The notes under the pieces were generated by a model. The model ran no database searches. It saw only the letters and a program-made list of their open reading frames with translations, and was not told the DNA's origin. Below are positions 7,697 to 61,072 of a stretch of DNA of 64,000 nt, piece after piece. Each line of letters opens with the position of its first letter. Position 1 is the stretch's first letter. Origin of the DNA: an uncultured archaeon (GTDB lineage Archaea > Aenigmatarchaeota > Aenigmatarchaeia > PWEA01 > JAGHBM01); NCBI GenBank assembly GCA_964584335.1, contig CAZOZN010000003.1, forward strand, positions 86,436 to 150,435, written 5' to 3'. A program made the position numbers and the translations under genes.

Positions 7697-9727
7697 GTGT
7701 TATTAATGTTTGTTGGTATCAAAAAACGTGACGGCAGGATAGTAAAATTTAATTCTAAAAAAATAACAGATGCTATTGCAAAGGCCGGCGAAGCTACCGG
7801 AGAATTTGACAGAGAAGTCGCAGAAAAGCTTACAATGAAAGTGATGTCTCTTGTACAGCAAGTTTTTGATAATGAGATGCCCACGGTAGAGAAAATACAG
7901 GATTTGGTTGAAGAGGTTTTGCTTTCTTCCACATACAGAAAGACCGCAAAATCATATATAATTTACAGGGAACAGCATGCCAGAATGAGAGAGATAACCA
8001 ACAAGGCTCATGTTGAACTGATAGACCAGTATCTTAAAAAAATGGACTGGCAGGTAAACGAGAACAGTAACATGACTTTTTCTCTTCAGGGTCTTAACAA
8101 TTATATTTCTTCTGAGATAAGCAAAATTTATTGGCTTAATGAGATATATCCTGCTGAAATAAAGAATGCAGCACAACAGGAGGATTTTCATATACATGAC
8201 CTTAATCTGCTCTCAGTTTATTGTGTTGGATGGGATCTTTATGATTTGCTTGCCGAGGGATTTAGGGGAGTTAGTGGTAAAGTAGAAAGCAGCCCCGCTA
8301 AGCATTTTAGGAGTGCTTTGGGTCAGGTAGTAAACTTTTTTTACACTTTACAGGGCGAGGCAGCGGGTGCACAGGCATTTTCGAATTTTGATACACTTCT
8401 CGCACCTTTTATTAGATATGACGGTCTTGAGTATAAGCAAGTAAAGCAGGCTCTTCAGGAGTTTATATTTAACATAAACGTGCCTACCAGGGTAGGCTTT
8501 CAAACCCCATTTACTAACATAACACTGGACCTAAAACCTCCTAGCTATTATGCGGACCAAAGCGTCATAATAGGAGGCAAGCCAAAGGACAAAAATTATA
8601 GCGATTTTCAGGAAGAAATGAATATGCTAAACATGGCTTTGTTTGAAGTTATGAGCGAGGGTGACGCAAAGGGCAGGGTTTTTACTTTCCCCATACCCAC
8701 ATACAATATAACAAAAGATTTTAACTGGGATGATGAAAAGCTTGATGGTTTGTGGGAAATGTCGGCAAAGTACGGTATACCGTATTTTTCAAATTTTGTT
8801 AATTCGGACATGAGTCCTGAAGATGCCAGAAGCATGTGCTGCAGACTTCGTCTTGACAAGAGAGAACTTGAGAAGAGAGGAGGCGGACTCTTCGGCTCTA
8901 ATCCTCTGACAGGTTCTATAGGAGTTGTTACTATAAACATGCCCAGAATAGGGTATTTGTCTAAAAACGAGAAAGAATTTTTTGAAAGGCTTGAGAATCT
9001 AATGAAATTGGCTAAGAACAGCCTTGAGATAAAAAGAAAGGTTCTAGAGAACTTCACAGAAAAAAACCTTTATCCCTATTCAAGATTTTATCTCAGGAAC
9101 GTAAAGAAAAAATTTGGAGAATATTGGAAAAATCATTTCTCTACTATAGGTCTTGTTGGTGTTAACGAGGCTTGCCTAAATCTTTTAGGTGTTGGAATAT
9201 CTAAAGACAAGGGCAGGGATTTTGCATCTAGAGTTCTTGAGTTTATGAGGGAAGTTTTGGTAAAATTCCAGGAGGAAACTGGTAACAATTACAATCTAGA
9301 AGCTACTCCAGCAGAAGGTACTTCTTACAGGTTAGCAAGGGTTGACAAAGAGAAGTACCCCGATATAATATGTGCTAACGAAGAAGAATACAAAAAGGGC
9401 GGTGAACCATTTTATACGAACTCTACACAGTTACCTGTTAACTACACTGAAGACATATTTGAGGCACTCGATTTACAAGACAGTTTGCAGTCAAAATACA
9501 CCGGAGGCACAGTTCTTCATATATTTCTTGGTGAGAGAATAGACGAATCTAAAAATCTTAAGAACATGGTAAGAAAAATATGCGATAATTACCATCTACC
9601 GTATTTTACCTTCACACCAACTTTCAGCATATGTCCCATTCATGGTTATATAAAGGGAGAACATAAGTACTGTCCCAAATGTGACAAGGAAATTGGATAC
9701 GAAGTTGAAGAGATTAAAAATATTTAG
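7697..9727 (+). CDS. nrdD: anaerobic ribonucleoside-triphosphate reductase NrdD, body with ATP-cone, catalytic barrel and zinc ribbon; lacks the glycyl-radical domain in this frame
   Basis: N-terminal ATP-cone GIKKRDGRIVKFNSKKITDAIAKAG; C-terminal zinc ribbon CPIHGYIKGEHKYCPKC; ORF ends with TAG at 9725-9727. The track's GTG start at 7697 may instead be the ATG at 7706. Confidence 0.85.
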   Translation: MLLMFVGIKKRDGRIVKFNSKKITDAIAKAGEATGEFDREVAEKLTMKVMSLVQQVFDNEMPTVEKIQDLVEEVLLSSTYRKTAKSYIIYREQHARMREITNKAHVELIDQYLKKMDWQVNENSNMTFSLQGLNNYISSEISKIYWLNEIYPAEIKNAAQQEDFHIHDLNLLSVYCVGWDLYDLLAEGFRGVSGKVESSPAKHFRSALGQVVNFFYTLQGEAAGAQAFSNFDTLLAPFIRYDGLEYKQVKQALQEFIFNINVPTRVGFQTPFTNITLDLKPPSYYADQSVIIGGKPKDKNYSDFQEEMNMLNMALFEVMSEGDAKGRVFTFPIPTYNITKDFNWDDEKLDGLWEMSAKYGIPYFSNFVNSDMSPEDARSMCCRLRLDKRELEKRGGGLFGSNPLTGSIGVVTINMPRIGYLSKNEKEFFERLENLMKLAKNSLEIKRKVLENFTEKNLYPYSRFYLRNVKKKFGEYWKNHFSTIGLVGVNEACLNLLGVGISKDKGRDFASRVLEFMREVLVKFQEETGNNYNLEATPAEGTSYRLARVDKEKYPDIICANEEEYKKGGEPFYTNSTQLPVNYTEDIFEALDLQDSLQSKYTGGTVLHIFLGERIDESKNLKNMVRKICDNYHLPYFTFTPTFSICPIHGYIKGEHKYCPKCDKEIGYEVEEIKNI

Positions 9728-9737
9728 AGGTGAAAAA

Positions 9738-9875
9738 ATGAAAGAAGGAATAAAAAGAGGCAGGACAGAATGTGAAATATACTCGCGTTCTGTGGGATAC
9801 CTTCGTCCGGTGAACCAGTGGAACAAAGGAAAGAGAGAGGAGTTTAAAGAAAGAAAAAATTTCAGGGCGAGTTAA
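9738..9875 (+). CDS. 45-codon mini-ORF encoding the NrdD glycyl-radical motif (separate frame from nrdD body)
   Basis: Translation MKEGIKRGRTECEIYSRSVGYLRPVNQWNKGKREEFKERKNFRAS contains the class III RNR glycyl-radical signature (R-S/V-x-GY ... WNxGKxxE). Strong RBS GAGGTGA at 9727-9733 overlaps the nrdD TAG; ATG at 9738; stop overlaps the nrdG ATG (TAATG at 9873-9877). Confidence 0.5.
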   Translation: MKEGIKRGRTECEIYSRSVGYLRPVNQWNKGKREEFKERKNFRAS

Positions 9876-10561
9876 TGAAAGTAGGTGGTTTTCAAAAGTT
9901 CTCTTTGATAGACTACCCCGGAAAGATTTGCTGTATTGTTTTTACTCAGGGTTGCAACTTTCGTTGCCCCTATTGTCATAATCCAGAATTGATTAATTTT
10001 AAGGAAAAAAGTTTAATAGATGATAATAAAATATTTAGTTTTTTGGAAAAGAGAAAGGGAAAGCTTGATGCTGTATGTATAACCGGAGGTGAACCCACTT
10101 TACAACCCGATTTGATAAATTTCATCAATAAAATAAAGGATATGGGTTATCTTGTTAAAATTGATTCTAACGGAACATCTCCTAAAACTTTGGAAAAGAT
10201 TATTAATATGGGAATTGTTGATTATTTCGCAATGGATTTTAAGTCACCTATAAAAAAGTATCATAATGTTGTAAATTCTTCTGTTGACAAAGAGGATATA
10301 ATAAAAAGCATGAATGTTATAATGAGTTCTGGTGTTGACTATGAGTTCAGGACTACTGTAGTAAAATCTCAGCTTTCTAAGAAAGATTTGATTGAAATAT
10401 CGAAAACCATAAAAGGTGCAAAATTGTATGTTTTGCAGAAATTTGTTCCATCACAAACTCTTGACCCTTCTTTCTCAAAAAAGAAAACTTATACTGATTC
10501 TGAGTTTAAAGAATTGAGGAAAGAAATCAAAAATTACGTAGAAAGATGTATAGTTCGATGA
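9875..10561 (+). CDS. nrdG: anaerobic ribonucleotide reductase activating protein, radical SAM
   Basis: CNFRCPYCHN (CxxxCxxC) near the N-terminus and GGEP motif; translationally coupled to the upstream mini-ORF. Confidence 0.85.
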   Translation: MKVGGFQKFSLIDYPGKICCIVFTQGCNFRCPYCHNPELINFKEKSLIDDNKIFSFLEKRKGKLDAVCITGGEPTLQPDLINFINKIKDMGYLVKIDSNGTSPKTLEKIINMGIVDYFAMDFKSPIKKYHNVVNSSVDKEDIIKSMNVIMSSGVDYEFRTTVVKSQLSKKDLIEISKTIKGAKLYVLQKFVPSQTLDPSFSKKKTYTDSEFKELRKEIKNYVERCIVR

Positions 10562-10592
10562 TTTTACCGACCATTAGCTTTAAATAGTATTA

Positions 10593-10650
10593 TGAATATA
10601 TATTCAATACATGTAATGAATAAGTATTCATTAAACTTTTAGAAAAGTTT
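10593..10650. promoter_or_regulatory. three consecutive perfect palindromes upstream of the DUF5320 operon
   Basis: TGAATATATATTCA (10593-10606), AATGAATAAGTATTCATT (10615-10632) and AAACTTTTAGAAAAGTTT (10633-10650); the first two share half-sites TGAATA-N2-TATTCA with centres 24 bp apart. Confidence 0.45.
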
Positions 10651-10687
10651 AATCAAAATCTAAAAAACAAAAAAGAGGTGATTTTAT

Positions 10688-10972
10688 ATGCCAAGAGGAG
10701 ATGGAACAGGACCTAATGGAATGGGACCCAGGACCGGAAGAGGCCTTGGATACTGTAATGGATATGATAACCCTGGGTTTAATAAAGGAATGCCCAGAGG
10801 TGGTGCAGGATTTGGCAGAGGTTTCAGAGCAAGAAGATTCTGGAATGAGCCAACATATCCCCAGAGAATTACAAAAGAAGAAGAAAAAAGAATGCTAGAA
10901 GACGAGAAGAAATACATAGAAAATGAACTTAATGATATAAAGAAAAGACTTGATGAAATCAAAAAAGAATAA
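10688..10972 (+). CDS. DUF5320-family glycine-rich small protein with C-terminal coiled coil
   Basis: MPRGDGTGPNGMGPRTGRGLGYCNGY N-terminal signature, RGF/GRG repeats, K/E-rich helical tail; RBS GAGGTG. Confidence 0.6.
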   Translation: MPRGDGTGPNGMGPRTGRGLGYCNGYDNPGFNKGMPRGGAGFGRGFRARRFWNEPTYPQRITKEEEKRMLEDEKKYIENELNDIKKRLDEIKKE

Positions 10973-10989
10973 TTTGGAGGTGATTTTAT

Positions 10990-11223
10990 ATGCCAAGAGG
11001 AGATAGAAAAGGTCCTGATGGTTTGGGACCAAAAACAGGCAGGTCACTTGGTTTTTGCTCTGGTGAAGATACTCCAGGATACGTAAGCAATCTTCCCGGA
11101 ATGGGAATGGGAAGAGGACCAAGAGACGGAAGAGGCCGAGGAAGAGGTTTCGGCAATTCCGAGTACAATCCCAGAGGAGAAAGAAGACCAAGAGACGGAA
11201 GAGGCCGAGGATACAGGGATTAA
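10990..11223 (+). CDS. DUF5320-family paralog
   Basis: MPRGDRKGPDGLGPKTGRSLGFCSGE; the RBS and first ~25 nt are identical to the upstream paralog (GAGGTGATTTTATATGCCAAGAGGAGAT). Confidence 0.6.
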   Translation: MPRGDRKGPDGLGPKTGRSLGFCSGEDTPGYVSNLPGMGMGRGPRDGRGRGRGFGNSEYNPRGERRPRDGRGRGYRD

Positions 11224-11224
11224 A

Positions 11225-11647
11225 ATGGACGAAAAATTAAGAAAAAGCATAAAGAAATCAGCCAAGTCTCTTTGGAACACAATTCCAGTGTTGGCCGGAG
11301 TTGTTTTATTTGTTAGTCTGGCCAATGCTGTTATACCTAAATCATCATATTCAATAATATTCACGGGAAACATTATTTCAGATTCTTTCATTGGCGGAGC
11401 TCTGGGCAGCATACTTGCGGGCAACCCCGTTACGAGTTACGTTCTCGGAGGAGAATTCCTTAACCAGGGTGTCAGCCTGATTGCGGTAACAGCCTTTCTG
11501 GTTTCATGGGTTACTGTTGGTTTTGTCCAGCTTCCGGCGGAATCTCTTTTGCTTGGAAAAAAGTTTTCAATTCTAAGAAATTTGACAAGTTTCATATTTT
11601 CAATAATTGTCGCAATAATAACGGTTTTTGTGGTGGGGTTAATATGA
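11225..11647 (+). CDS. predicted permease, first half (4 TM)
   Basis: Hydrophobic 140-aa protein; stop overlaps the next ATG (ATGA at 11644-11647). Confidence 0.45.
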   Translation: MDEKLRKSIKKSAKSLWNTIPVLAGVVLFVSLANAVIPKSSYSIIFTGNIISDSFIGGALGSILAGNPVTSYVLGGEFLNQGVSLIAVTAFLVSWVTVGFVQLPAESLLLGKKFSILRNLTSFIFSIIVAIITVFVVGLI

Positions 11648-12153
11648 AAAAAGAAAAAAGTTACACGTCCTGGTGCTTTTTGGCAATTGTTTTAGTTTTG
11701 TATGCAGGATACTGGTTTTTCAGTCCTGCTAATGTCATGAGCGCATTGAATTTTGGTTTCGGTATATTGAAGAACATAATCCCCGTTTTTGTTTTGATAT
11801 TTGTTTTGATGGTTGCTATCAATTATTGGATGGACCCAAAAAAAGTAACTAAACATTTGGGGAGTTCTTCAGGATACAAAAGATGGTTTTTTGCTGTTTT
11901 AGGAGGAATACTTTCTACCGGACCCATATATATGTGGTATCCAATTCTGAAGGAACTCAAGAAGAAAGGAGTTAATTACGGTTTTGTTGCAACGTTCCTT
12001 TACAACCGGGCCATAAAACCGCCTCTCTTGCCTCTGATAATATATTACTTTGGTCTCAAGTTTACTATAGTTCTTACTGTTGTAATGATGATTTTCTCGG
12101 TTTTGCAGGGAATTATTTTTGAAAAAATTGATGAAAGGGGTGTTTTAAAATGA
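11644..12153 (+). CDS. predicted permease, second half (4-5 TM)
   Basis: Start chosen at the ATG at 11644 (MKKEKSYTSWCF...) rather than the track's upstream frame-overlapping start; multi-TM. Confidence 0.45.
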   Translation: MKKEKSYTSWCFLAIVLVLYAGYWFFSPANVMSALNFGFGILKNIIPVFVLIFVLMVAINYWMDPKKVTKHLGSSSGYKRWFFAVLGGILSTGPIYMWYPILKELKKKGVNYGFVATFLYNRAIKPPLLPLIIYYFGLKFTIVLTVVMMIFSVLQGIIFEKIDERGVLK

Positions 12154-12265
12154 AAAACAACAAAACAAGTTTTGAATTTTTCACTTTTTATGGAGGTGTT
12201 TTAAAATGAAAAACAACAAAACAAGTTTTGAATTTTTCAATTCTTATAGGGGTGTTTTAAAATGA
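12137..12265 (+). repeat. 56-bp tandem duplication (2.3 copies) of the permease 3' end plus the nifX-like RBS and start, creating two 19-codon coupled uORFs
   Basis: Units GGTGTTTTAAAATGAAAAACAACAAAACAAGTTTTGAATTTTTCA at 12138-12193 and 12194-12249, plus a partial third. uORFs at 12150-12209 and 12206-12265 (MKNNKTSFEFF...GVLK) each end in ATGA overlapping the next start. Confidence 0.7.
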
Positions 12266-12564
12266 AAATAGCAATTTCGTCTAAAGGCAAAGACGAGGAT
12301 TCTGAAGTAAGCAAGGTTAGCGGTAGAGCTCCTTATTACTTGATTTTTGAAGATTGTAATTTGGTGAAATCAATCAAAAATCCTTTCAGGATAGGCGGTG
12401 GCGGTGCTGGTTTTAGTGTTGTAGAAATGCTTGCAGAAGAAAACGTAGGTTTGGTTTTAAGTGGAAATTTTGGTCATAACATGAAAAAGGCTCTTGATGA
12501 TAAGGGAATATCTTATAAGGAGATTTCATGTATTAAAATAAGGGAAGCTTTAATGGAGGTTTAA
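12262..12564 (+). CDS. NifX/NifB-like dinitrogenase FeMo-cofactor-binding family protein
   Basis: MKIAISSKGKDEDSEVSKVSGRAPYYLIFE... fold signature; GGGGAG loop. Confidence 0.7.
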   Translation: MKIAISSKGKDEDSEVSKVSGRAPYYLIFEDCNLVKSIKNPFRIGGGGAGFSVVEMLAEENVGLVLSGNFGHNMKKALDDKGISYKEISCIKIREALMEV

Positions 12565-12566
12565 TA

Positions 12567-12926
12567 ATGAAAGTTGCGATTCCTACAAAGGGAGATGGCG
12601 GTTTGGATAGTGTTGTGGGTGAACATTTTGGCAGGGTACCAAATTACACTATAGTTGATATGGGAGAAAAAAAGATTTGCGTAGTTTCTAATACAAGTTC
12701 TCACAAAGGCGGTAAGGGATATCCTCCAGAGATAATGAAAGAAAATGATGTAGATGTTATGATATGTAGGGATATTGGCAGTCGTGCCGTATCTATTTTT
12801 AAAGAAATGGGTATAAAGGTTTTTATAGGAGCCAAAGGAACTGCAAAGAATGCTTTAGATGATTTTAAAGAAGGTAGATTAAAATCTGCAGACACAGAAC
12901 ATGTTTGCAGGGGACACATGAGTTGA
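12567..12926 (+). CDS. NifX/NifB-like family paralog
   Basis: MKVAIPTKGDGGLDSVVGEHFGRVPNYTIVD is the canonical motif of this family. Confidence 0.7.
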   Translation: MKVAIPTKGDGGLDSVVGEHFGRVPNYTIVDMGEKKICVVSNTSSHKGGKGYPPEIMKENDVDVMICRDIGSRAVSIFKEMGIKVFIGAKGTAKNALDDFKEGRLKSADTEHVCRGHMS

Positions 12927-12930
12927 TTAT

Positions 12931-13383
12931 ATGCCGAGACCTAAAAGGATGAGAAGAATAGCTGGTATGCCTGGATTCACGCATTTTGCTCCCCGTGGTT
13001 TTAGAGCAAAAGAGGAAGTGATTCTCACAGTTGGTGAGTACGAGGCAATAAGGCTCAAAGACCATGAAGGTTTGGGTCAGAAAGATGCTGCCAAAAAGAT
13101 GAGTGTTTCCCAACCTACTTTTAATCGCATACTTAAATCTGCCAGAGAGAAGCTTGCTGAGTTTCTTGTTGAAGGCAGGATTATAAGAATAGAAGGGGGT
13201 GATTATAAAATGATTAGGCCAAGAAGAGGTGCTGGTCCCGGTAGAGGAAGAATGGGTGGAATTGGTGCAGGACCTATTGGAGAATGTATATGTCCTAAAT
13301 GTGGTCATAAATCTCCTCATAGACCAGGTTTGCCGTGTTATGAACAAAAATGTCCAAAGTGCGGAGAAATGATGACAAGATAA
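12931..13383 (+). CDS. DUF134/UPF0251 predicted DNA-binding protein with C-terminal glycine-rich segment and zinc ribbon
   Basis: MPRPKRMRRIAGMPGFTHFAPRG...VILTVGEYEAIRLKDHEGLGQKDAAKKMSVSQPTFNRILKSAREK (sigma-70 r4-like HTH); C-terminus GAGPGRGRMGGIGAGP then CPKCGH...CPKCGE. Confidence 0.65.
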   Translation: MPRPKRMRRIAGMPGFTHFAPRGFRAKEEVILTVGEYEAIRLKDHEGLGQKDAAKKMSVSQPTFNRILKSAREKLAEFLVEGRIIRIEGGDYKMIRPRRGAGPGRGRMGGIGAGPIGECICPKCGHKSPHRPGLPCYEQKCPKCGEMMTR

Positions 13384-13410
13384 TAAGTTTTTAATTTAGG
13401 TGGTATCTTT

Positions 13411-13803
13411 ATGAAAGATAGTGTTATTGTTAAAAATTTTCTAAATAAGAAAAATATATTTGCTGTTGTGGGCGCATCCAGAAATAAGGATAAGTACGGC
13501 TATAAAGTTTACATAGACCTTAGGAATTCTGGATACAACGTTTACCCTGTTAACCCCAACACAGAGGAAGTTATTGGTGATAAATGTTATCCTTCTCTGG
13601 ACAGTCTTCCGGAAAAGCCCGATGTAGTTAGTTTTGTAGTACCTCCAAAAACTACTGAGAAAGTTCTTGTCGATTGCAAGAAACTTGGAATAAAAAAAGT
13701 TTGGTTACAGCCTGGCTCTGAATCAAAAAATGCAATAAATTTTTGCAGGCAAAATAATATAGAAATATTAAATAATTTATGTATAATGATAGAGAGTAAG
13801 TGA
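13411..13803 (+). CDS. CoA-binding domain protein (YccU-like)
   Basis: FAVVGASRNKDKYGYKVYIDLRNSGYNVYPVNP. Confidence 0.6.
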   Translation: MKDSVIVKNFLNKKNIFAVVGASRNKDKYGYKVYIDLRNSGYNVYPVNPNTEEVIGDKCYPSLDSLPEKPDVVSFVVPPKTTEKVLVDCKKLGIKKVWLQPGSESKNAINFCRQNNIEILNNLCIMIESK

Positions 13804-14381
13804 GTCTGATGGATAGGGATAAAAAAATTAAAAAACTTATTGAGGAGGTTGAAAACTGTAAAAAGTGCAATCTCCATAAAAACAGAAAAAATGCCATAAC
13901 TGGCGAGGGTTCTTTATCTGCTGATGTTCTTTTTATAGGGGAGGCTCCTGGTTATTGGGAAGATGTAAAAAAGAGACCTTTTGTTGGCAGGTCTGGAAAA
14001 GTTCTTGATAAATTGATTGAATCGGCTGGCCTAAAAAGAGAAGATGTTTACATAACAAACATACTGAAATGCAGGCCGCCTGAAAACAGAAACCCAAAAG
14101 AAACTGAAATAAAAGAATGTTCTTCCTATCTTGACAGGCAGATTGCGATAATTAGACCTAAAGTAATAGCCACTTTGGGTAGTTTTTCTACTAATCATAT
14201 TTTCGATAAGTTTTGTCTTAAAAAGGAAAGGATAAGCGATGTTCACGGCAAAGTATTTGAGGCAAATACCATATTTGGAAATATAAAAATAATACCTCTT
14301 TACCATCCTGCTGTTGCCGTATATAACTCAGTTAGTATAGAGGAGCTAAAGAAGGATTTTAAGTCTCTAAATAATATCTAG
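13800..14381 (+). CDS. udg: uracil-DNA glycosylase, family 4
   Basis: CKKCNLHKNR cysteines, GEAPGYWED and PFVGRSGKVLD motifs. Confidence 0.8.
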   Translation: MSLMDRDKKIKKLIEEVENCKKCNLHKNRKNAITGEGSLSADVLFIGEAPGYWEDVKKRPFVGRSGKVLDKLIESAGLKREDVYITNILKCRPPENRNPKETEIKECSSYLDRQIAIIRPKVIATLGSFSTNHIFDKFCLKKERISDVHGKVFEANTIFGNIKIIPLYHPAVAVYNSVSIEELKKDFKSLNNI

Positions 14382-14822
14382 TATCTCTTTTCTAAGTTTT
14401 ATGTTGTTTATTTTTCCTATTCTGTTCTTTTCGATTATGCCCCTTTCTTCAAATTTTTTTATTATTCTTGATACTTTTACCTTTGCAAGCCCGGTTTCTC
14501 TCACTATCTCTGCCTGTCCTAATTCCTTATTATCTATTAATTTTTTTAATACTTTCCTTTCATCACCTTCCACAAAATCAAGTAGAACGTTTTTATCTAT
14601 TTTTTTATTCTCGAATCTTGGGGAAAACATGTAATATATAAGAGTTCCTATAAAAAGTCCTATTGATGCTATAAATGGTATGAAAATTGGTATTGGTATG
14701 AAACATCCACAAGCATTTCCTGAGGATATTTCTGTCTGGACATAGAGTGAGCTTACCGCTACTACAAGTACGAATATGGATATAAGCATTATACCTAGTA
14801 CTATTTTTTTGGAATCATCCAT
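14367..14822 (-). CDS. membrane-anchored winged-helix transcriptional regulator
   Basis: Two N-terminal TM segments, then LGQAEIVRETGLAKVKVSRIIKKFEERGII (MarR/TrmB-like wHTH). Confidence 0.45.
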   Translation of the reverse strand: MDDSKKIVLGIMLISIFVLVVAVSSLYVQTEISSGNACGCFIPIPIFIPFIASIGLFIGTLIYYMFSPRFENKKIDKNVLLDFVEGDERKVLKKLIDNKELGQAEIVRETGLAKVKVSRIIKKFEERGIIEKNRIGKINNIKLRKEILDII

Positions 14823-14841
14823 AGTTTCATATTATGAAACT
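14823..14841. promoter_or_regulatory. 19-bp perfect palindrome AGTTTCATATTATGAAACT in a divergent promoter region
   Basis: Lies immediately 5' of the regulator ATG at 14820-14822 and 35 bp upstream of the dsbA-like start; an extra half-site AGTTTCAT sits at 14853-14860. Confidence 0.45.
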
Positions 14842-14875
14842 TAAATATATATATAGTTTCATTTAAAGTGGTAGT

Positions 14876-15679
14876 ATGAAAATAAAAATTTTAATAATAA
14901 TGGCTTTCTTAATAGCCTTTATTCCATACGTTTCCGCTAGTAGTGTCTGTACTGTATATTTTACAGGAGTTGGATGTCCTCATTGTGCAAATTCTGACCC
15001 ATTTTTGATGGAAGAGGTTACGAATTCGTATAAAGATTTTGTTATGATAGAATATGAGATATATCAACAAAGGGAAAATTCTGAAATACTTTTAAGTTAT
15101 GATAAGAAATATGGAACAGGAATGGGTGTACCATTGATAATTTTTGACAGCGATACTTCATTTATTGGAGACAAACCCATATTAGAGAATACTGAAGAAT
15201 CCATAAAATATACTAACGGTAGTGGTTGTCTGCTTCTAAACATTTCTTTACCTTTTGAAGAATTAAATCTAAATGAACTTCCAGGACTCCCTAAAATATG
15301 GTCTAACGGAAAGATTTTAATTAAGAAGTCAGAAGGTAAAATGGACGAAGAAAAAATGGAAATTGTAAAAGATTTAATGTTTTCTGATAATTTCCCGAGA
15401 GATATAGACAAATATTTGCTTAAAGAAGGCAGTTGTGATGAATATTTTGTAGATTCTTGCTTGGAAAAAGTTGAACCAGAAGCAGTTCCTCTTTCGGGCA
15501 AGTCAGTTTATTTTAGTGATGCTGTAAATATTGGAGGAAATTGGGTATTACAGTACAACACCGGAGAGTATAATCCTCCGGAAGAAGAGTCCTTCAATTA
15601 CATTTACGTTATAATACCGATTTTGGTTGGCTTGTTGATAGGATTCGGATTGCCATTTTTAAAGAGAGGTGGTAAATAA
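14876..15679 (+). CDS. exported DsbA-like thiol-disulfide oxidoreductase with C-terminal membrane anchor
   Basis: Signal peptide; VYFTGVGCPHCANSDPF (CPHC active site as in DsbA); C-terminal TM plus KRGGK. Confidence 0.5.
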   Translation: MKIKILIIMAFLIAFIPYVSASSVCTVYFTGVGCPHCANSDPFLMEEVTNSYKDFVMIEYEIYQQRENSEILLSYDKKYGTGMGVPLIIFDSDTSFIGDKPILENTEESIKYTNGSGCLLLNISLPFEELNLNELPGLPKIWSNGKILIKKSEGKMDEEKMEIVKDLMFSDNFPRDIDKYLLKEGSCDEYFVDSCLEKVEPEAVPLSGKSVYFSDAVNIGGNWVLQYNTGEYNPPEEESFNYIYVIIPILVGLLIGFGLPFLKRGGK

Positions 15680-16377
15680 TGGAAGAACTTACAATTGCAA
15701 AAATAATTTCTTTGGCGGCTGTTGATGCTGTAAATCCTTGTGCTCTTGCTGTCTTGAGTCTCATGCTGATAGCTATAATAACTTATAACCCAAAGAACAG
15801 AAAGAACATAATACTTGCGGGAACAGCTTTTAGCTTGTCTGTTTTTGTTATGTATTTCTTTTATGGTATTATTATAGTAAAATTTTTCCAGTTTGTTCAG
15901 GCTGTAACTTCCATAAGGATTATGCTTTACAATATACTTGGAGGAGTTGCTATAATTCTGGGAATATTGAATATCAAGGATTTCTTTTACTATAAGCCCG
16001 GTGGGCTTGGAACTGAGATGCCAATGTTCCTTAGGCCAAAGGTTAAAAAAATAATAAATGGCATAACGTCACCAAAAGGAGCTTTTCTTATAGGAGCTTT
16101 TGTTACCTTATTTTTGCTGCCTTGTACAATAGGTCCATATGTAATAGCAGGAGGAATACTTTCTGAATTTGAAATTTTTTCCATTGCTCCCTGGCTTATT
16201 TTGTATAACCTTATATTCATTATACCCATGTTTTTAATAACTTTAATTGTTTATGCAGGCATAACAAAGGTTGAAAATGTTTCTGAATGGAAAGATAAAA
16301 ACATAAAATATTTGCATTTAATATCCGGTTTAATAATATTTGTTTTAGGTGTTGCAATGGTTATGGGATGGGTTTAA
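15679..16377 (+). CDS. ccdA: CcdA/DsbD-family transmembrane thiol-disulfide electron transfer protein
   Basis: AVDAVNPCALAVLSLML and LLPCTIGPY (two conserved membrane cysteines); 6 TM. Confidence 0.7.
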   Translation: MEELTIAKIISLAAVDAVNPCALAVLSLMLIAIITYNPKNRKNIILAGTAFSLSVFVMYFFYGIIIVKFFQFVQAVTSIRIMLYNILGGVAIILGILNIKDFFYYKPGGLGTEMPMFLRPKVKKIINGITSPKGAFLIGAFVTLFLLPCTIGPYVIAGGILSEFEIFSIAPWLILYNLIFIIPMFLITLIVYAGITKVENVSEWKDKNIKYLHLISGLIIFVLGVAMVMGWV

Positions 16378-16418
16378 GACTTATTTAATATATAAAAAAC
16401 AATAATATATGTGGGGTT

Positions 16419-17162
16419 ATGGACGTATTAATTTGGATATTAGGCAGTACTTTTGCTATGAGTCTTATTGCCTGGATAGGTATATTTGCTCTTGCCTTTA
16501 ATGAAAAAACATTAAAAAAAATAATTCTTTTTTTAGTAGCGTTTTCAGCTGGTTCTCTTATAGGAGGGGCCTTTCTTCATCTTATACCGGAGTCAATAAA
16601 CAAGTCGGGCAATCAAATAGATATTTTCTTGTGGATTTTGTTTGGTTTTTCCATTTTTTTCTTGATGGAGCAGTTTCTTCAATGGCACCATTGCCACAAA
16701 GTACCTTCCGAGCACAAGAAACCTGTTACATATCTTATTTTAGTATCTGACGCTTTGCATAATTTTATAGGAGGGCTTGCAATAGCAGGTTCTTTTTTGG
16801 TTAATATTCAAACGGGAATAATAACTTGGATTGCGGCAGCCGCACACGAGATACCCCAGGAACTGGGCGACTTTGGGATACTTGTTCATGGAGGTTGGTC
16901 TAAAAATAAGGCATTACTTTTTAATTTCTTTTCAGCTCTTACAATAGTTCCTGCTGCTTTAATAGTTTACTTTGTTTCTTCTGGAATAGATACAACTTTC
17001 TTGTTGCCTTTTGCTGCTGGAAATTTTATTTACATAGCATCCTCTGATTTAATACCTGAGGTTAAAAGCGGTGAAAGTTTAAGTAAAGGTATTGCTTATT
17101 TTATTTTTTTCCTATTGGGACTTTCTCTGATGTTGTTGGTTAAATTTACTTTTGGTGGTTGA
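16419..17162 (+). CDS. zupT: ZIP-family divalent metal transporter (ZupT-like)
   Basis: HNFIGGLAIAGSF and AAAHEIPQELGDFGIL motifs; His-rich loop HHCHKVPSEHKK. Confidence 0.8.
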   Translation: MDVLIWILGSTFAMSLIAWIGIFALAFNEKTLKKIILFLVAFSAGSLIGGAFLHLIPESINKSGNQIDIFLWILFGFSIFFLMEQFLQWHHCHKVPSEHKKPVTYLILVSDALHNFIGGLAIAGSFLVNIQTGIITWIAAAAHEIPQELGDFGILVHGGWSKNKALLFNFFSALTIVPAALIVYFVSSGIDTTFLLPFAAGNFIYIASSDLIPEVKSGESLSKGIAYFIFFLLGLSLMLLVKFTFGG

Positions 17163-45033: not shown

Positions 45034-45429
45034 ATGCATGAGTGGGCCCTTGCGGAATCTGTTTTGTTTTCTGTTATGGACATATCAAAGAAAGAGGGTA
45101 TTTCTAAGGTTAAGGAGATTACTATTTCTCTTGGTGAACTTCAGCAGATAGATAGGGAAGTTTTTAGGCTTGCTCTTAAAGATATTATGAAGAATAAAAA
45201 AGTTGATTTTGATATAAAAATTGAAGTTGATAAAAGCCTTTTGAGTTGTAGAAGCTGCGGAGAAAAATGGGTTTTTGATTTAAAGGACTTGAGTGAAAAG
45301 TACAGGGAACCTGTACACTTCATACCGGAAGTTTCTCACAGTTATATAAGATGCCCCAGTTGCGGAAGCCCTGATTTTAAAATTTTAAGGGGAAGGGGAG
45401 TATGGTTAAAATCTATAAAGGGTGATTGA
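45034..45429 (+). CDS. hypA: hydrogenase/urease nickel incorporation protein HypA
   Basis: N-terminus MHEWALAESV; C-terminal CxxC...CxxC (CRSCGEKW...CPSCGSPD). Confidence 0.8.
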   Translation: MHEWALAESVLFSVMDISKKEGISKVKEITISLGELQQIDREVFRLALKDIMKNKKVDFDIKIEVDKSLLSCRSCGEKWVFDLKDLSEKYREPVHFIPEVSHSYIRCPSCGSPDFKILRGRGVWLKSIKGD

Positions 45430-46134
45430 GTGGACCCAAGAACTAGTGTCATAGATAAAAGAATTGAAGGAAAGAGAATCATAGCGGTATCTGGAGCAAA
45501 AGGTGGTATAGGAAAAAGCCTTGTTTCATGTCTTACGGCCTTAAATTTAACAAACATGGGCTACAGGGTAGGTCTGCTTGACCTTGATTTTTCAAGCCCG
45601 TCAGACCATACAATAATAGGTGTTAATGATATACAACCTGATGAAAAGAACGGAATTATACCTCCAAAAGTTTATGGTATTAGATTTATGTCCATATTTT
45701 TTTATTCAGGCAACAAACCTTCTCCTTTGAGGGGTCTTGATGTAACAAACATCATAAGGGAGATTTTTTGTATAACCAAATGGGAAGATGTCGATGTTAT
45801 TATTATTGATATGCCTCCTGGGATGGGAGAGCCCGTCTTGGATATGATAAACACAATAAAAAATATGGAATTTGTTGTATTGACAACGCCTTCAAAACTG
45901 AGCATAAATACTGTAAATAAGTTTATATCTCTTTTAGATGACTTCAGGGTACCGATTCTGGGTGTGATAGAAAATATGAGATTAAAAAAGTCTTCTGAGT
46001 GTTTTTTTGGAGAAAGGTTTTTAGGCAGCATAAAGTTTGACTTGGATTTAGAAGAAAGTATAGGAAATCCAGAAGCACTTTCAAAGACTAATTTTTCTAG
46101 AGAATTAAGAGAGATATTAGAAAAAATATTTTAG
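45430..46134 (+). CDS. Mrp/MinD-family P-loop ATPase (ATPase-type HypB candidate)
   Basis: Deviant Walker A AVSGAKGGIGKS; GTG start immediately after the hypA stop. Confidence 0.6.
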   Translation: MDPRTSVIDKRIEGKRIIAVSGAKGGIGKSLVSCLTALNLTNMGYRVGLLDLDFSSPSDHTIIGVNDIQPDEKNGIIPPKVYGIRFMSIFFYSGNKPSPLRGLDVTNIIREIFCITKWEDVDVIIIDMPPGMGEPVLDMINTIKNMEFVVLTTPSKLSINTVNKFISLLDDFRVPILGVIENMRLKKSSECFFGERFLGSIKFDLDLEESIGNPEALSKTNFSRELREILEKIF

Positions 46135-60947: not shown

Positions 60948-61072
60948 ATGGTAGCGGGGGGTGGATTTGAACCACCGACCTCAGGGTTATGAGCCCTGCG
61001 AGCATTCTGTTTACACCCAGGTTTTATGAACCAAGGAAGTCTCCAGGCTGCTCCACCCCGCTATTTAGATAT
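60948..61072 (-). tRNA. tRNA-Met: tRNA-Met (CAU), initiator-like, with a ~37-nt non-canonical intron in the D-loop
   Basis: Exons read AGCGGGGUGGAGCAGCCUGG ... GCUCG CAGGG CUCAUAA CCCUG AGGUC GGUGG UUCAAAU CCACC (C) CCCCGCU A CCA. A1:U72 and three G:C pairs at 29-31/39-41 mark it as an initiator. The insert AGACTTCCTTGGTTCATAAAACCTGGGTGTAAACAG lies between G19 and the 3' D-stem strand. A 7-C run gives one extra C at the T-stem/acceptor junction. Confidence 0.75.

Follow-up and report, generated by a model that had tools for sequence, protein, structure and literature searches.

A seven-gene cassette from an uncultured DPANN archaeon as a possible ATPase-less variant of the ORP/IssA-type iron-sulfur handling systems of anaerobes

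What might two NifX-like proteins, two DUF5320 proteins, two permease pieces, and a DUF134 DNA-binding protein do together in an uncultured archaeon? Their genes form a cassette of seven tightly packed co-directional genes, at positions 10688-13383 of the plus strand, in a 64-kb stretch of DNA from an archaeon of the Aenigmatarchaeota (assembly GCA_964584335.1, contig CAZOZN010000003.1, positions 86,436 to 150,435; referred to as the window). The GC content of the window is approximately 34%, and the flanking genes are archaeal in type, e.g., a ThrRS with an archaeal editing domain. An initial annotation of the sequence had taken the cassette for a metal or Fe-S cofactor trafficking and uptake module with its own regulator. 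Domain fusions, the published biochemistry of the ORP and IssA proteins, and a conserved operator in the promoter support a trafficking and transport module with such a regulator; membership in an already described ORP/IssA kind of system had not been recognized. The reading that we favor, with slightly better than even confidence, is that the cassette is a DPANN-archaeal, ATPase-less variant of the ORP/IssA-type iron-sulfur and metal-sulfide handling of anaerobes, equipped with a dedicated transporter and its own repressor.

The families to which the proteins had been assigned were all recovered in Pfam searches. Both DUF5320 proteins, both NifX-like proteins (Nitro_FeMo-Co), and the DUF134 (UPF0251) protein scored above the gathering thresholds, and ArsP_1 matched both permease pieces (scores in Table 1; the thresholds are 27 bits for DUF5320, 26.3 for Nitro_FeMo-Co, 27 for DUF134, and 32.3 for ArsP_1). 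NCBIfam contained no family for DUF5320, for NifX-like 1, or for the free-standing form of the six-cysteine (Cys6) module described below, and no match for PermA or PermB.

We compared the cassette to a set of approximately 160 related loci (labels L001 onward). The closest homologs of the DUF134 protein are found in metagenome-assembled genomes of Aenigmarchaeota, Woesearchaeota, Diapherotrites, Nanoarchaeota, and Pacearchaeota. The exact order DUF5320-PermA-PermB-NifX-DUF134 recurs in Woesearchaeota (L005, L011, L022), Aenigmatarchaeota (L006, L010, L069, L083), and other archaeal metagenome-assembled genomes (L016, L019, L029). In all 68 testable loci, PermA is located directly upstream of PermB; directly downstream of PermB, 54 of 70 loci have a NifX-like gene encoding approximately 100 amino acids. 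A count anchored on PermB drew on metagenome contigs with at least 536 PermB relatives; among the 26 loci that extended 2.5 kb or more in both directions, 24 contained NifX, 18 DUF134, 16 DUF5320, and 16 all three, and a MinD-type ATPase was present in only four. At least 456 species-level genomes of anaerobic archaea and bacteria encode DUF5320, with hosts among the Cloacimonadota, Bacillota, Bacteroidales, Lentisphaerota, Syntrophorhabdus, Thermoplasmatota, Methanosarcinales, and Asgard archaea, including Promethearchaeum syntrophicum. In a second count, anchored on DUF5320 (80 loci/species, neighbors within 5 kb), NifX-like genes were found in 56 loci, MinD-ferredoxin ATPases in 43, and DUF134 or the Cys6 module in 48; at least one of these three, or the split permease, accompanied DUF5320 in 69. 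Genes for Lactamase_B, radical-SAM, and CDF-transporter proteins were also recurrent neighbors. The initial annotation had named an absence of family matches, or of synteny in other genomes, as grounds for giving up its proposal; family matches are present, and the synteny is conserved in DPANN, Asgard, and other archaea as well as in many phyla of anaerobic bacteria.

In Desulfovibrio (D. vulgaris and D. alaskensis), the products of the orp operons are two MinD-like ATPases that carry an inserted 2x[4Fe-4S] ferredoxin domain (Orp3/4), the small Fe-S protein Orp5, the NifX-like "orange protein" ORP (Orp8), and MrpORP (Orp9), both domains of which bind Fe-S clusters (PMC6345978). For Orp5, homology to a [2Fe-2S]-binding protein has been reported, and Orp8 is homologous to proteins with a [S2MoS2CuS2MoS2] cluster (PMC6345978). 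In Desulfovibrio alaskensis G20, Dde_3197-3199 from the ORP region co-vary with feoA and flavodoxin (PMC10533852). Two of the related loci, L028 and L053, encode true MrpORP proteins of 429 and 425 amino acids (524 and 516 bits on NF041136, with a cutoff of 450). Both of these operons open with DUF5320 and a small Cys-rich (Cys6) protein, and two MinD-ferredoxin ATPases come next; genuine ORP operons thus include DUF5320 and the Cys-rich protein among their components. By its position and character, the free-standing Cys6 module would be the best candidate for Orp5.

The cassette in the window shares with the ORP system its NifX-like cluster-binding proteins (PF02579) and the restriction to anaerobes, and its Cys6 module may correspond to the small Cys-rich protein of that system. 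It retains the NifX-like, DUF5320, and DUF134/Cys parts; however, the permease pair stands in place of the ATPases. No MinD-ferredoxin ATPase of the Orp3/Orp4 type was found in the cassette, and the only MinD/Mrp-type match in the window, at 45430-46134, is located beside hypA. Nor does the cassette contain MrpORP: NifX-like 2 matches only the C-terminal domain of that protein (NF041136 positions 265-360, 50 bits against the equivalog cutoff of 450). The regulator differs as well. Whereas the Desulfovibrio operons are under sigma54/OrpR/IHF control, the cassette has a DUF134 protein with a putative archaeal TATA-proximal operator, and the Cys6 module is fused to this regulator. The cassette contains no gene for an enhancer-binding protein, and its promoter consists of a TATA box and palindromes; archaea are known to lack sigma54.

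NifX-like 1, the canonical cassette member that follows PermB, is MTH1175-like, and MTH1175 is also its closest solved structure (1eo1, E 2e-11). NifX-like 2 is an extra, TM1290-like paralog with an HFGR motif and a Cys/His-containing C-terminus, and it matched TM1290 (1t3v/1o13) with an E value of 1e-17. ORP (2wfb) was matched at 3e-5 by NifX-like 2 and at 2.6e-3 by NifX-like 1. The closest solved relatives of both are non-nif proteins, and no nitrogenase genes (nifHDK, nifEN, nifB radical-SAM domain) were found in the cassette or among the annotated flanking genes of the window. Scores against the NifX domains of fusion proteins did not discriminate between NifX-like 1 and 2. Both proteins resemble MTH1175, TM1290, TM1816 (1rdu), and PH0822 (2yx6), which are single-domain proteins of approximately 100-125 amino acids from non-diazotrophic contexts. 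While the entries for these four proteins carry no functional or genomic-context interpretation, here the context is defined by a transporter, a regulator, and DUF5320.

In IssA of Pyrococcus furiosus, a NifX-type domain is joined to a cationic Gly/Arg/aromatic tail that contains one Cys and was proposed to wrap anionic thioferrate; IssA stores thioferrate and reconstitutes ferredoxin (PMC5524996). Proteins of the IssA clade were more abundant in pyrite-grown Methanococcus voltae (PMC9431491). The glycine-rich motif MPRGDxxGPxGxGPxTGRxLGxC, which the initial annotation had quoted for its pair of DUF5320 paralogs, is indeed present in both proteins, which are 58% identical over residues 1-36. 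In DUF5320a, the invariant N-terminal motif is accompanied by a cationic region rich in Gly, Arg, and aromatic residues (pI 11.2 for residues 1-60), one Cys, and a heptad-like C-terminal segment that is probably helical. DUF5320b has no C-terminal helical segment and consists of 27% Gly and 19% Arg, with one Cys and a pI of 11.0. Tandem pairs of DUF5320 genes are common in other loci. We found no functional study of DUF5320 in the literature searched.

A Zixibacteria protein (L035:8663-9334) consists of a NifX-like domain fused to DUF5320. When this fusion was used as query, all of the best 120 matches had NifX followed by DUF5320; 85 of them carry PF17253 in precomputed annotation, most also with a 2x[4Fe-4S] ferredoxin domain, and Pfam confirmed the NifX-DUF5320-ferredoxin architecture for the protein P0257. 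A large, mainly metagenomic set of proteins of approximately 300 amino acids (P0248-P0360) has a NifX-like domain joined in one chain to a DUF5320 region and a 2x[4Fe-4S] ferredoxin domain, and we found no discussion of this single-chain architecture in the literature examined. NifX domains with a short RG-rich tail behind them also occur in Asgard, Aenigmatarchaeota, and other loci. These comparisons suggest that DUF5320 may be a detachable Gly/Arg-rich tail of NifX-like proteins. Because the fused tails lack the invariant N-terminal motif of free-standing DUF5320, this motif could be a docking peptide that is needed only when the tail is a separate polypeptide. IssA and the proposed "IssX" relatives have a similar combination of a NifX-type domain and a cationic, Gly/Arg/aromatic-rich, largely disordered segment with a single Cys, and many homologs carry NifX and DUF5320 in one chain. 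In contrast to IssA, the cassette encodes the tail separately, in two gene copies that share an invariant N-terminal motif, and DUF5320a adds the heptad-like C-terminal segment.

The initial annotation had described the permease as split into two pieces. The two pieces exist, and both match ArsP_1, PermA below the cutoff; however, no gene is broken, and the pieces are paralogous single-repeat half-transporters. PermA is a half-size membrane protein, a probable member of the ArsP/PF03773 superfamily, with approximately four transmembrane segments and one repeat unit, and aligns to positions 12-131 of the 294 in the ArsP_1 profile. PermB, also half-size, aligns to positions 3-136, so both cover the same first half of the model. 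The two align to one another over 126 collinear columns in hhalign (E 2e-4), and hydropathy indicates approximately four hydrophobic segments in each. The possibility of a frameshifted pseudogene was rejected because two genes are present in every one of the 68 testable loci and both match the same half of ArsP_1. The full-length ArsP topology of 4+4 (or 4+N+4) transmembrane segments on one polypeptide is not found here; each protein is one repeat. PermA has no Cys and PermB has one; the vicinal Cys pair, which we take to be needed for arsenical transport, is absent from both.

The ArsP organoarsenical exporters (TC 2.A.119, PF03773, TOG superfamily) are built from a duplicated unit of four transmembrane segments, and half-size, single-repeat members of the family have been reported (PMC7176098). 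Given this duplicated unit and the matches of both proteins to the same half of ArsP_1 and to each other, PermA and PermB are best read as a predicted heterodimer of two single-repeat proteins. The pair differs from the ArsP family in being two separate, always paired paralogous half-size genes, in the score of PermA below the Pfam cutoff, and in its context: there are no ars genes, and NifX-like, DUF5320, and DUF134 genes are the neighbors in nearly all of the 80 loci. In L003, L035, L064, L070, and L080, the transporter slot is held by a CDF protein fused to a NifX domain, and in L029 (458-1510) and L066 (3400-4455) a CDF protein is fused to the Cys6 module. Because these fusions fill the transporter slot elsewhere, they are our main argument that the transported species would be the one bound or sensed by the NifX and Cys6 domains.

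In the DUF134 protein, the AlphaFold2 model has a pLDDT of 79.8 overall and of approximately 91 for residues 31-80, a confident helix-turn-helix. In a Foldseek search, this helix-turn-helix superposed on sigma-70 region 4 and on the DeoR DNA-binding domain with a root-mean-square deviation of 0.6-0.9 Å over 40-50 residues; only the helix-turn-helix was matched, and the Cys6 module had no Foldseek match. A search of PDB sequences with the DUF134 protein returned nothing significant, and the protein did not reach the NCBIfam equivalog PRK04217 (71 versus 115 bits). Literature searches for DUF134, which were swamped by DUF134x names, yielded nothing functional. The helix-turn-helix is followed by a disordered Arg/Gly linker (residues ~95-115, pLDDT <50) and by the module (residues ~116-150, pLDDT ~80-86). 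The initial annotation had seen a CxxC...CxxC ribbon in this C-terminus. It is Cys-rich, but it contains more than CxxC pairs: six invariant Cys and a nearly invariant His form the pattern C-x-C-P-x-C-G ... H ... P-C ... C-P-K-C-G (C119, C121, C124, H130, C136, C141, and C144).

Among the 86 loci first collected, the Cys6 module was fused to DUF134 in 14 cases, all of them archaeal, and was found 28 times without a DUF134 domain. The latter are mostly free-standing proteins of 53-105 amino acids; two form the C-terminus of a CDF transporter, and one, L010:1770-2033, is probably a truncated open reading frame (ORF) call of a fused DUF134 protein, since it also matches part of the DUF134 helix-turn-helix. 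A profile search with the module found 3251 protein clusters at E <= 1e-3, mainly of 50-80 amino acids and named "hypothetical", almost none of which had a Pfam domain. As judged by these profile matches, the Cys6-His module is a large family of small proteins without a Pfam model. The initial annotation had also read the DUF134 C-terminus as a repeat of the DUF5320-like segment. It is Gly/Arg-rich, but BLASTP, Pfam at E <= 10, and hhalign found no meaningful homology between the two; direct homology was rejected, and the only link is an indirect one through the free-standing Cys6 proteins. Because 32 of the best 120 free-standing Cys6 homologs start with the DUF5320 N-terminal motif (MPRGDGTGPxGxGPGTGRG), the two families do share a mobile N-terminal peptide.

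Two paralogous proteins of Syntrophorhabdus, L053:3984-4748 and L053:7219-7980, are fusions of a DUF134 helix-turn-helix to a NifX-like domain (76.9 and 58.8 bits in Pfam for the first), and an archaeal-type palindrome lies 39 nt upstream of the second. Together with the DUF134-Cys6 fusions, these proteins indicate that the C-terminal domain in the regulator family is a NifX module in some members and a Cys6 module in others. As a functional analogy only, the DUF134 protein can be compared to the Fe-S-sensing transcription factors of the IscR type, which also join a helix-turn-helix to a Cys/His-rich ligand site and regulate cluster-handling genes, here probably including the regulator's own gene. 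However, the fold families are unrelated, with DUF134 similar to sigma-70 region 4 and not to Rrf2; the putative sensor is a separate, ribbon-like module set off by a disordered RG linker, and cluster binding is putative.

Palindromes upstream of the cassette, which the initial annotation had mentioned, are present as O1 and O2, along with a third inverted repeat (Table 1). O1 and O2 are the sole matches to TGAATANNTATTCA in the window when up to one mismatch is allowed. In 34 independent loci, the first cassette gene is preceded by the pattern (A)TGAATA-N2-TATTCA(T). The collected sequence (1.39 Mb) contains 56 distinct palindrome sites; 46 of them fall within the 2.4% located just upstream of DUF5320 ORFs (binomial P ~8e-65), and several others precede DUF134, NifX-like, or PermA genes. 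Loci with the palindrome include Asgard archaea (L027, L052, L084), Iainarchaeum (L037), and, before a DUF134-NifX fusion gene, the bacterium Syntrophorhabdus (L053). A TTTAWATA box precedes the palindrome by 4-6 nt in at least 17 loci. The palindrome is repeated, at a spacing similar to that of O1 and O2, in L091, L109, and L116, and in L005, L016, and L037 the second copy is imperfect. Three close relatives (L091, L093, L103) have CTTTTT-AG(A)-AAAAAG palindromes at the position of the third inverted repeat, which could be a hairpin in the 5' untranslated region or a second protein site.

The conservation and the position of these sites are observed, and the binding protein is inferred: DUF134 is the one DNA-binding protein that the cassettes have in common, so ATGAATA-N2-TATTCAT is probably its operator, and DUF134 is probably autoregulatory. 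A palindrome directly downstream of the TATA box is the classic geometry of archaeal repressors that block polymerase recruitment.

The fusions form a network (DUF134+Cys6, DUF134+NifX, CDF+NifX, CDF+Cys6, NifX+DUF5320 with or without ferredoxin, DUF5320 N-terminal motif+Cys6, and P-loop+NifX in MrpORP), which ties all parts to what would be one function: the binding, sensing, and moving of a metal or metal-sulfide species. The cassette might operate as follows. The DUF134 protein, probably as a dimer, would sit on the two palindromes and, since these are immediately downstream of the TATA box, would block recruitment of the RNA polymerase. Its Cys6-His module, the same module as in the small Cys-rich proteins of true ORP operons, would hold a metal or an Fe-S cluster and thereby report the cellular status. 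The two NifX-like proteins would hold an inorganic cluster or polymer in the cytoplasm, as do ORP, the C-terminal domain of MrpORP, and IssA. The DUF5320 pair would provide in trans the cationic tail that IssA and the NifX-DUF5320 fusions carry in cis, would neutralize and stabilize anionic metal-sulfide species, and would dock the detached tail through the invariant N-terminal motif. PermA and PermB, as a heterodimer with 4+4 transmembrane segments, would carry the metal species through the membrane, in the slot that the CDF-NifX and CDF-Cys6 fusions occupy elsewhere. We consider Fe-S to be the most likely substrate, by analogy to the characterized relatives.

Several points weigh against this reading. 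The mechanism as a whole is drawn from comparisons of sequences. Neither NifX-like protein falls within the IssA clade as delimited by Vaccaro et al. 2017 (an IPR003731 domain, pI >= 9, <5 Cys, and >= 20% Gly in the C-terminal 40 residues; PMC5524996): NifX-like 1 has a pI of 6.6 and 10% Gly in its last 40 residues, and NifX-like 2 a pI of 8.4 and 12% Gly; DUF5320b, as a protein of its own, has a pI of 11.0, one Cys, and 30% Gly. For this reason, we place the cassette outside the IssA clade and describe it as one that may work like a two-piece IssA. Since the cluster in ORP itself is of the Mo-Cu-S type, the ligand could be something other than Fe-S; in the Cys6 module, the two CPxCG knuckles might hold structural zinc. 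The ArsP-family transporters of known function export organoarsenicals and not iron, and a role in cell division has been suggested for the ORP complex (PMC3897727, PMC8359166).

Among the alternatives, the least improbable is a plain homeostasis of divalent metals (Zn2+/Fe2+/Co2+/Ni2+), in which PermA/PermB would move a free cation, the NifX-like proteins would be metallochaperones, and Cys6 the sensor, without any cluster. It is compatible with the cation-efflux proteins (CDF, PF01545+PF16916) fused to NifX or Cys6 in the transporter slot of other loci, with the resemblance of the CPxCG knuckles to a zinc ribbon, with the ZIP transporter 3 kb downstream of the cassette, and with the reported relationship of the ArsP family to the NiCoT Ni/Co transporters (PMC7176098). 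However, all characterized members of the NifX-like family bind a multi-metal sulfide cluster or polymer (PMC5524996, PMC6345978), many NifX-DUF5320 fusions carry ferredoxin domains, and most sister clusters contain Fe-S ATPases and MrpORP; we regard this explanation as unlikely, though worth keeping in view. A further alternative is Mo- or W-sulfide (thiometalate) handling, in which the NifX-like proteins, like the Desulfovibrio orange protein, would hold a Mo(W)-S-Cu type cluster and the permease would move molybdate, tungstate, or thiometalate. DPANN archaea generally have few molybdoenzymes, and no genes for Mo/W transport or cofactors were noticed among the annotated ORFs of the window, which are only some of its ORFs. 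ORP (2wfb) is a detectable homolog, and Orp8 is akin to proteins with a [S2MoS2CuS2MoS2] cluster (PMC6345978), but ORP is the most distant of the solved homologs by the E values given above, and we think a Mo/W role doubtful.

A role in nucleic-acid or cell biology seems to us improbable. It would make DUF5320 and the RG linker of DUF134 binders of the RGG type, e.g., of G-quadruplexes, with a function in division or at the chromosome. A motif scan did single out one DUF134 and one DUF5320 protein of Methanosarcina mazei as candidate quadruplex binders (PMC7565180), cell-division phenotypes have been connected with the ORP complex (PMC3897727, PMC8359166), and the C-terminus of the DUF5320 homolog in L005 has weak, sub-threshold matches to coiled-coil families, e.g., bZIP_1 and TPR_MLP1_2. 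However, the DPANN cassette keeps DUF5320, NifX, and DUF134 and yet drops the MinD-like ATPases that underlie the division idea, the fusion partners of DUF5320 are NifX and ferredoxin domains and not nucleic-acid enzymes, and transporter genes are integral to the cassette. Export of an arsenical by an ArsP-family permease, with the other genes as accessories, would fit the only Pfam match of the permease halves and the export of organoarsenicals by the founder of that family (PMC7176098). Against such resistance to arsenicals or metalloids, no ArsR, ArsC, ArsB, ArsA, or ArsM gene is found in or near the cassette, NCBIfam matches neither permease half, the Cys content of the two proteins is as low as reported above, and their invariant partners (NifX-like, DUF5320, DUF134) are not ars genes; on gene context and Cys content, we rejected this as very unlikely.

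Returning to the ATPase-less variant of ORP/IssA-type handling, a bolder and more specific form of it can be proposed, although we consider it improbable. PermA/PermB would be a dedicated carrier for iron-sulfur species, e.g., aqueous FeS clusters, and would feed a two-piece IssA-like store made of the NifX-like and DUF5320 proteins, while DUF134-Cys6 would represent a new class of Fe-S-sensing archaeal repressor with an operator conserved across DPANN and Asgard archaea and at least one bacterium. We know of no transporter for iron-sulfur species such as aqueous FeS clusters that has been identified in anaerobes.

The coordinates of the cassette, its promoter region, and the adjacent genes are given in Table 1.

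Table 1. Positions in the window of the cassette genes, the control elements, and the genes directly upstream.
Feature	Position	Strand	Comment
nrdD	7697-9727	+	upstream of nrdG and the cassette
nrdG	9875-10561	+	followed by a 126-nt intergenic region before the cassette
TATA-like box TTTAAATA, inferred operon promoter	10579-10586	+	TTTAWATA box pattern in relatives
Operator palindrome O1, TGAATA-TA-TATTCA, TGAATATATATTCA	10593-10606	.	putative DUF134 site between the TATA box and the expected transcription start
Operator palindrome O2, ATGAATA-AG-TATTCAT	10616-10631; core TGAATAAGTATTCA 10617-10630	.	24 bp past O1; putative site
Third inverted repeat TTCATTAAACTTTT/AAAAGTTTAATCAA	10627-10656	.	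93% complementary; between the operators and the start codon
DUF5320a	10688-10972	+	94 aa; PF17253, 99.9 bits
DUF5320b	10990-11223	+	77 aa; PF17253, 52.6 bits
PermA	11225-11647	+	140 aa; ArsP_1, 20.6 bits (below cutoff)
PermB	11644-12153	+	169 aa; ArsP_1, 43.2 bits (above cutoff)
56-bp tandem repeat	12139-12268	+	2.3 copies, 94% identical; copies the PermB-stop/NifX-start junction
NifX-like 1	12262-12564	+	100 aa; PF02579, 40.4 bits
NifX-like 2	12567-12926	+	119 aa; PF02579, 71.1 bits
DUF134 protein, whole	12931-13383	+	150 aa; PF02001, 97.2 bits, residues 3-94 only
DUF134 domain (residues 1-94)	12931-13212	+	helix-turn-helix of the sigma-70-region-4/DeoR type; PF02001
DUF134 protein, C-terminal part	13213-13383	+	disordered Arg/Gly linker, Cys6-His module, stop codon

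The seven genes had been described as a chain of ATGA overlaps. The seven co-directional genes are there, but the overlap between PermA and PermB (11644-11647) is the sole one between real cassette genes; three further ATGA overlaps (12150, 12206, 12262) are produced by the 56-bp tandem repeat, and the remaining junctions are gaps of 1-17 nt. The repeat yields two ORFs of 19 codons (12150-12209 and 12206-12265; MKNNKTSFEFF..GVLK) that are ATGA-joined to their neighbors. Relatives lack the repeat, and in them the NifX gene is directly 3' of PermB. Two independent Logan contigs from the same organism begin 52 nt upstream of NifX-like 1, within the tandem repeat, which suggests an assembly break at 12139-12268.

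The position of the cassette next to nrdDG, also pointed out initially, holds for the window; however, this adjacency was not seen in the related loci, and a functional tie of the cassette to nrdDG was rejected for this reason. The nrdD gene looks naturally split: the main ORF stops at 9727, past the Cys-rich region, and the glycyl-radical C-terminus (…YSRSVGYLRPVNQWNKGK…) is encoded by its own 45-codon ORF (9738-9875) with an AGGTGA Shine-Dalgarno-like sequence. This ORF matches positions 531-562 of the Pfam family NRDD (36 bits). The split could be a real feature of a two-piece class III ribonucleotide reductase, or it could stem from faulty assembly or sequencing.

Downstream of the cassette, positions 13411-14381 encode a CoA-binding-domain protein and a family-4 uracil-DNA glycosylase. 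The glycosylase gene is also found near the cassette in divergent archaeal loci (L006, L093, L126, L149, L158, L003), including a Diapherotrites locus with an ATPase-type cluster. Family-4 uracil-DNA glycosylases are [4Fe-4S] enzymes, and the proximity could represent lineage synteny or a functional link to an Fe-S client. The following block (14367-17162) contains a DUF7343/MarR-like helix-turn-helix membrane protein on the minus strand, a secreted CxxC protein with no Pfam match, a DsbD/SfLAP-like membrane protein, and the ZIP transporter (139 bits); part of it recurs beside the cassette in L006, and it may be a second metal-related gene group. Further away, at 45034-46134, a hypA-like gene (73 bits) is directly followed by a P-loop ATPase of the NUBPL/Mrp type (PF10609, 163 bits), and the two may be another metal-insertion pair; we noticed no hydrogenase in the window alongside the hypA-like gene. 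On the minus strand at 60952-61022, the Rfam tRNA model scores 32.6 bits, just over its gathering score, and ARAGORN reported zero tRNAs in the window.

The acquisition, buffering, and delivery of iron and sulfur are poorly understood in strict anaerobes, and likewise in the genome-reduced DPANN archaea. Clusters of the ORP/IssA kind are known, if poorly understood themselves; our comparisons suggest a stripped-down, transporter-linked DPANN version of them, with a putative role for each part. DUF5320 emerges as a possible detachable counterpart of the Gly/Arg-rich tail of NifX-type proteins, the Cys6-His family as a likely sensor or carrier, and PermA/PermB as the nominated membrane pair for transport, while DUF134 gains a concrete operator candidate and a repressor geometry. 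In the DPANN variant, the core of NifX-like, DUF5320, and DUF134/Cys6 proteins runs without MinD-like ATPases but with a transporter, which argues for metal-cluster handling, and not septum placement, as the core function. If the substrate does turn out to be an Fe-S species, the cassette would bear on how anaerobes assimilate mineral-derived iron sulfide.

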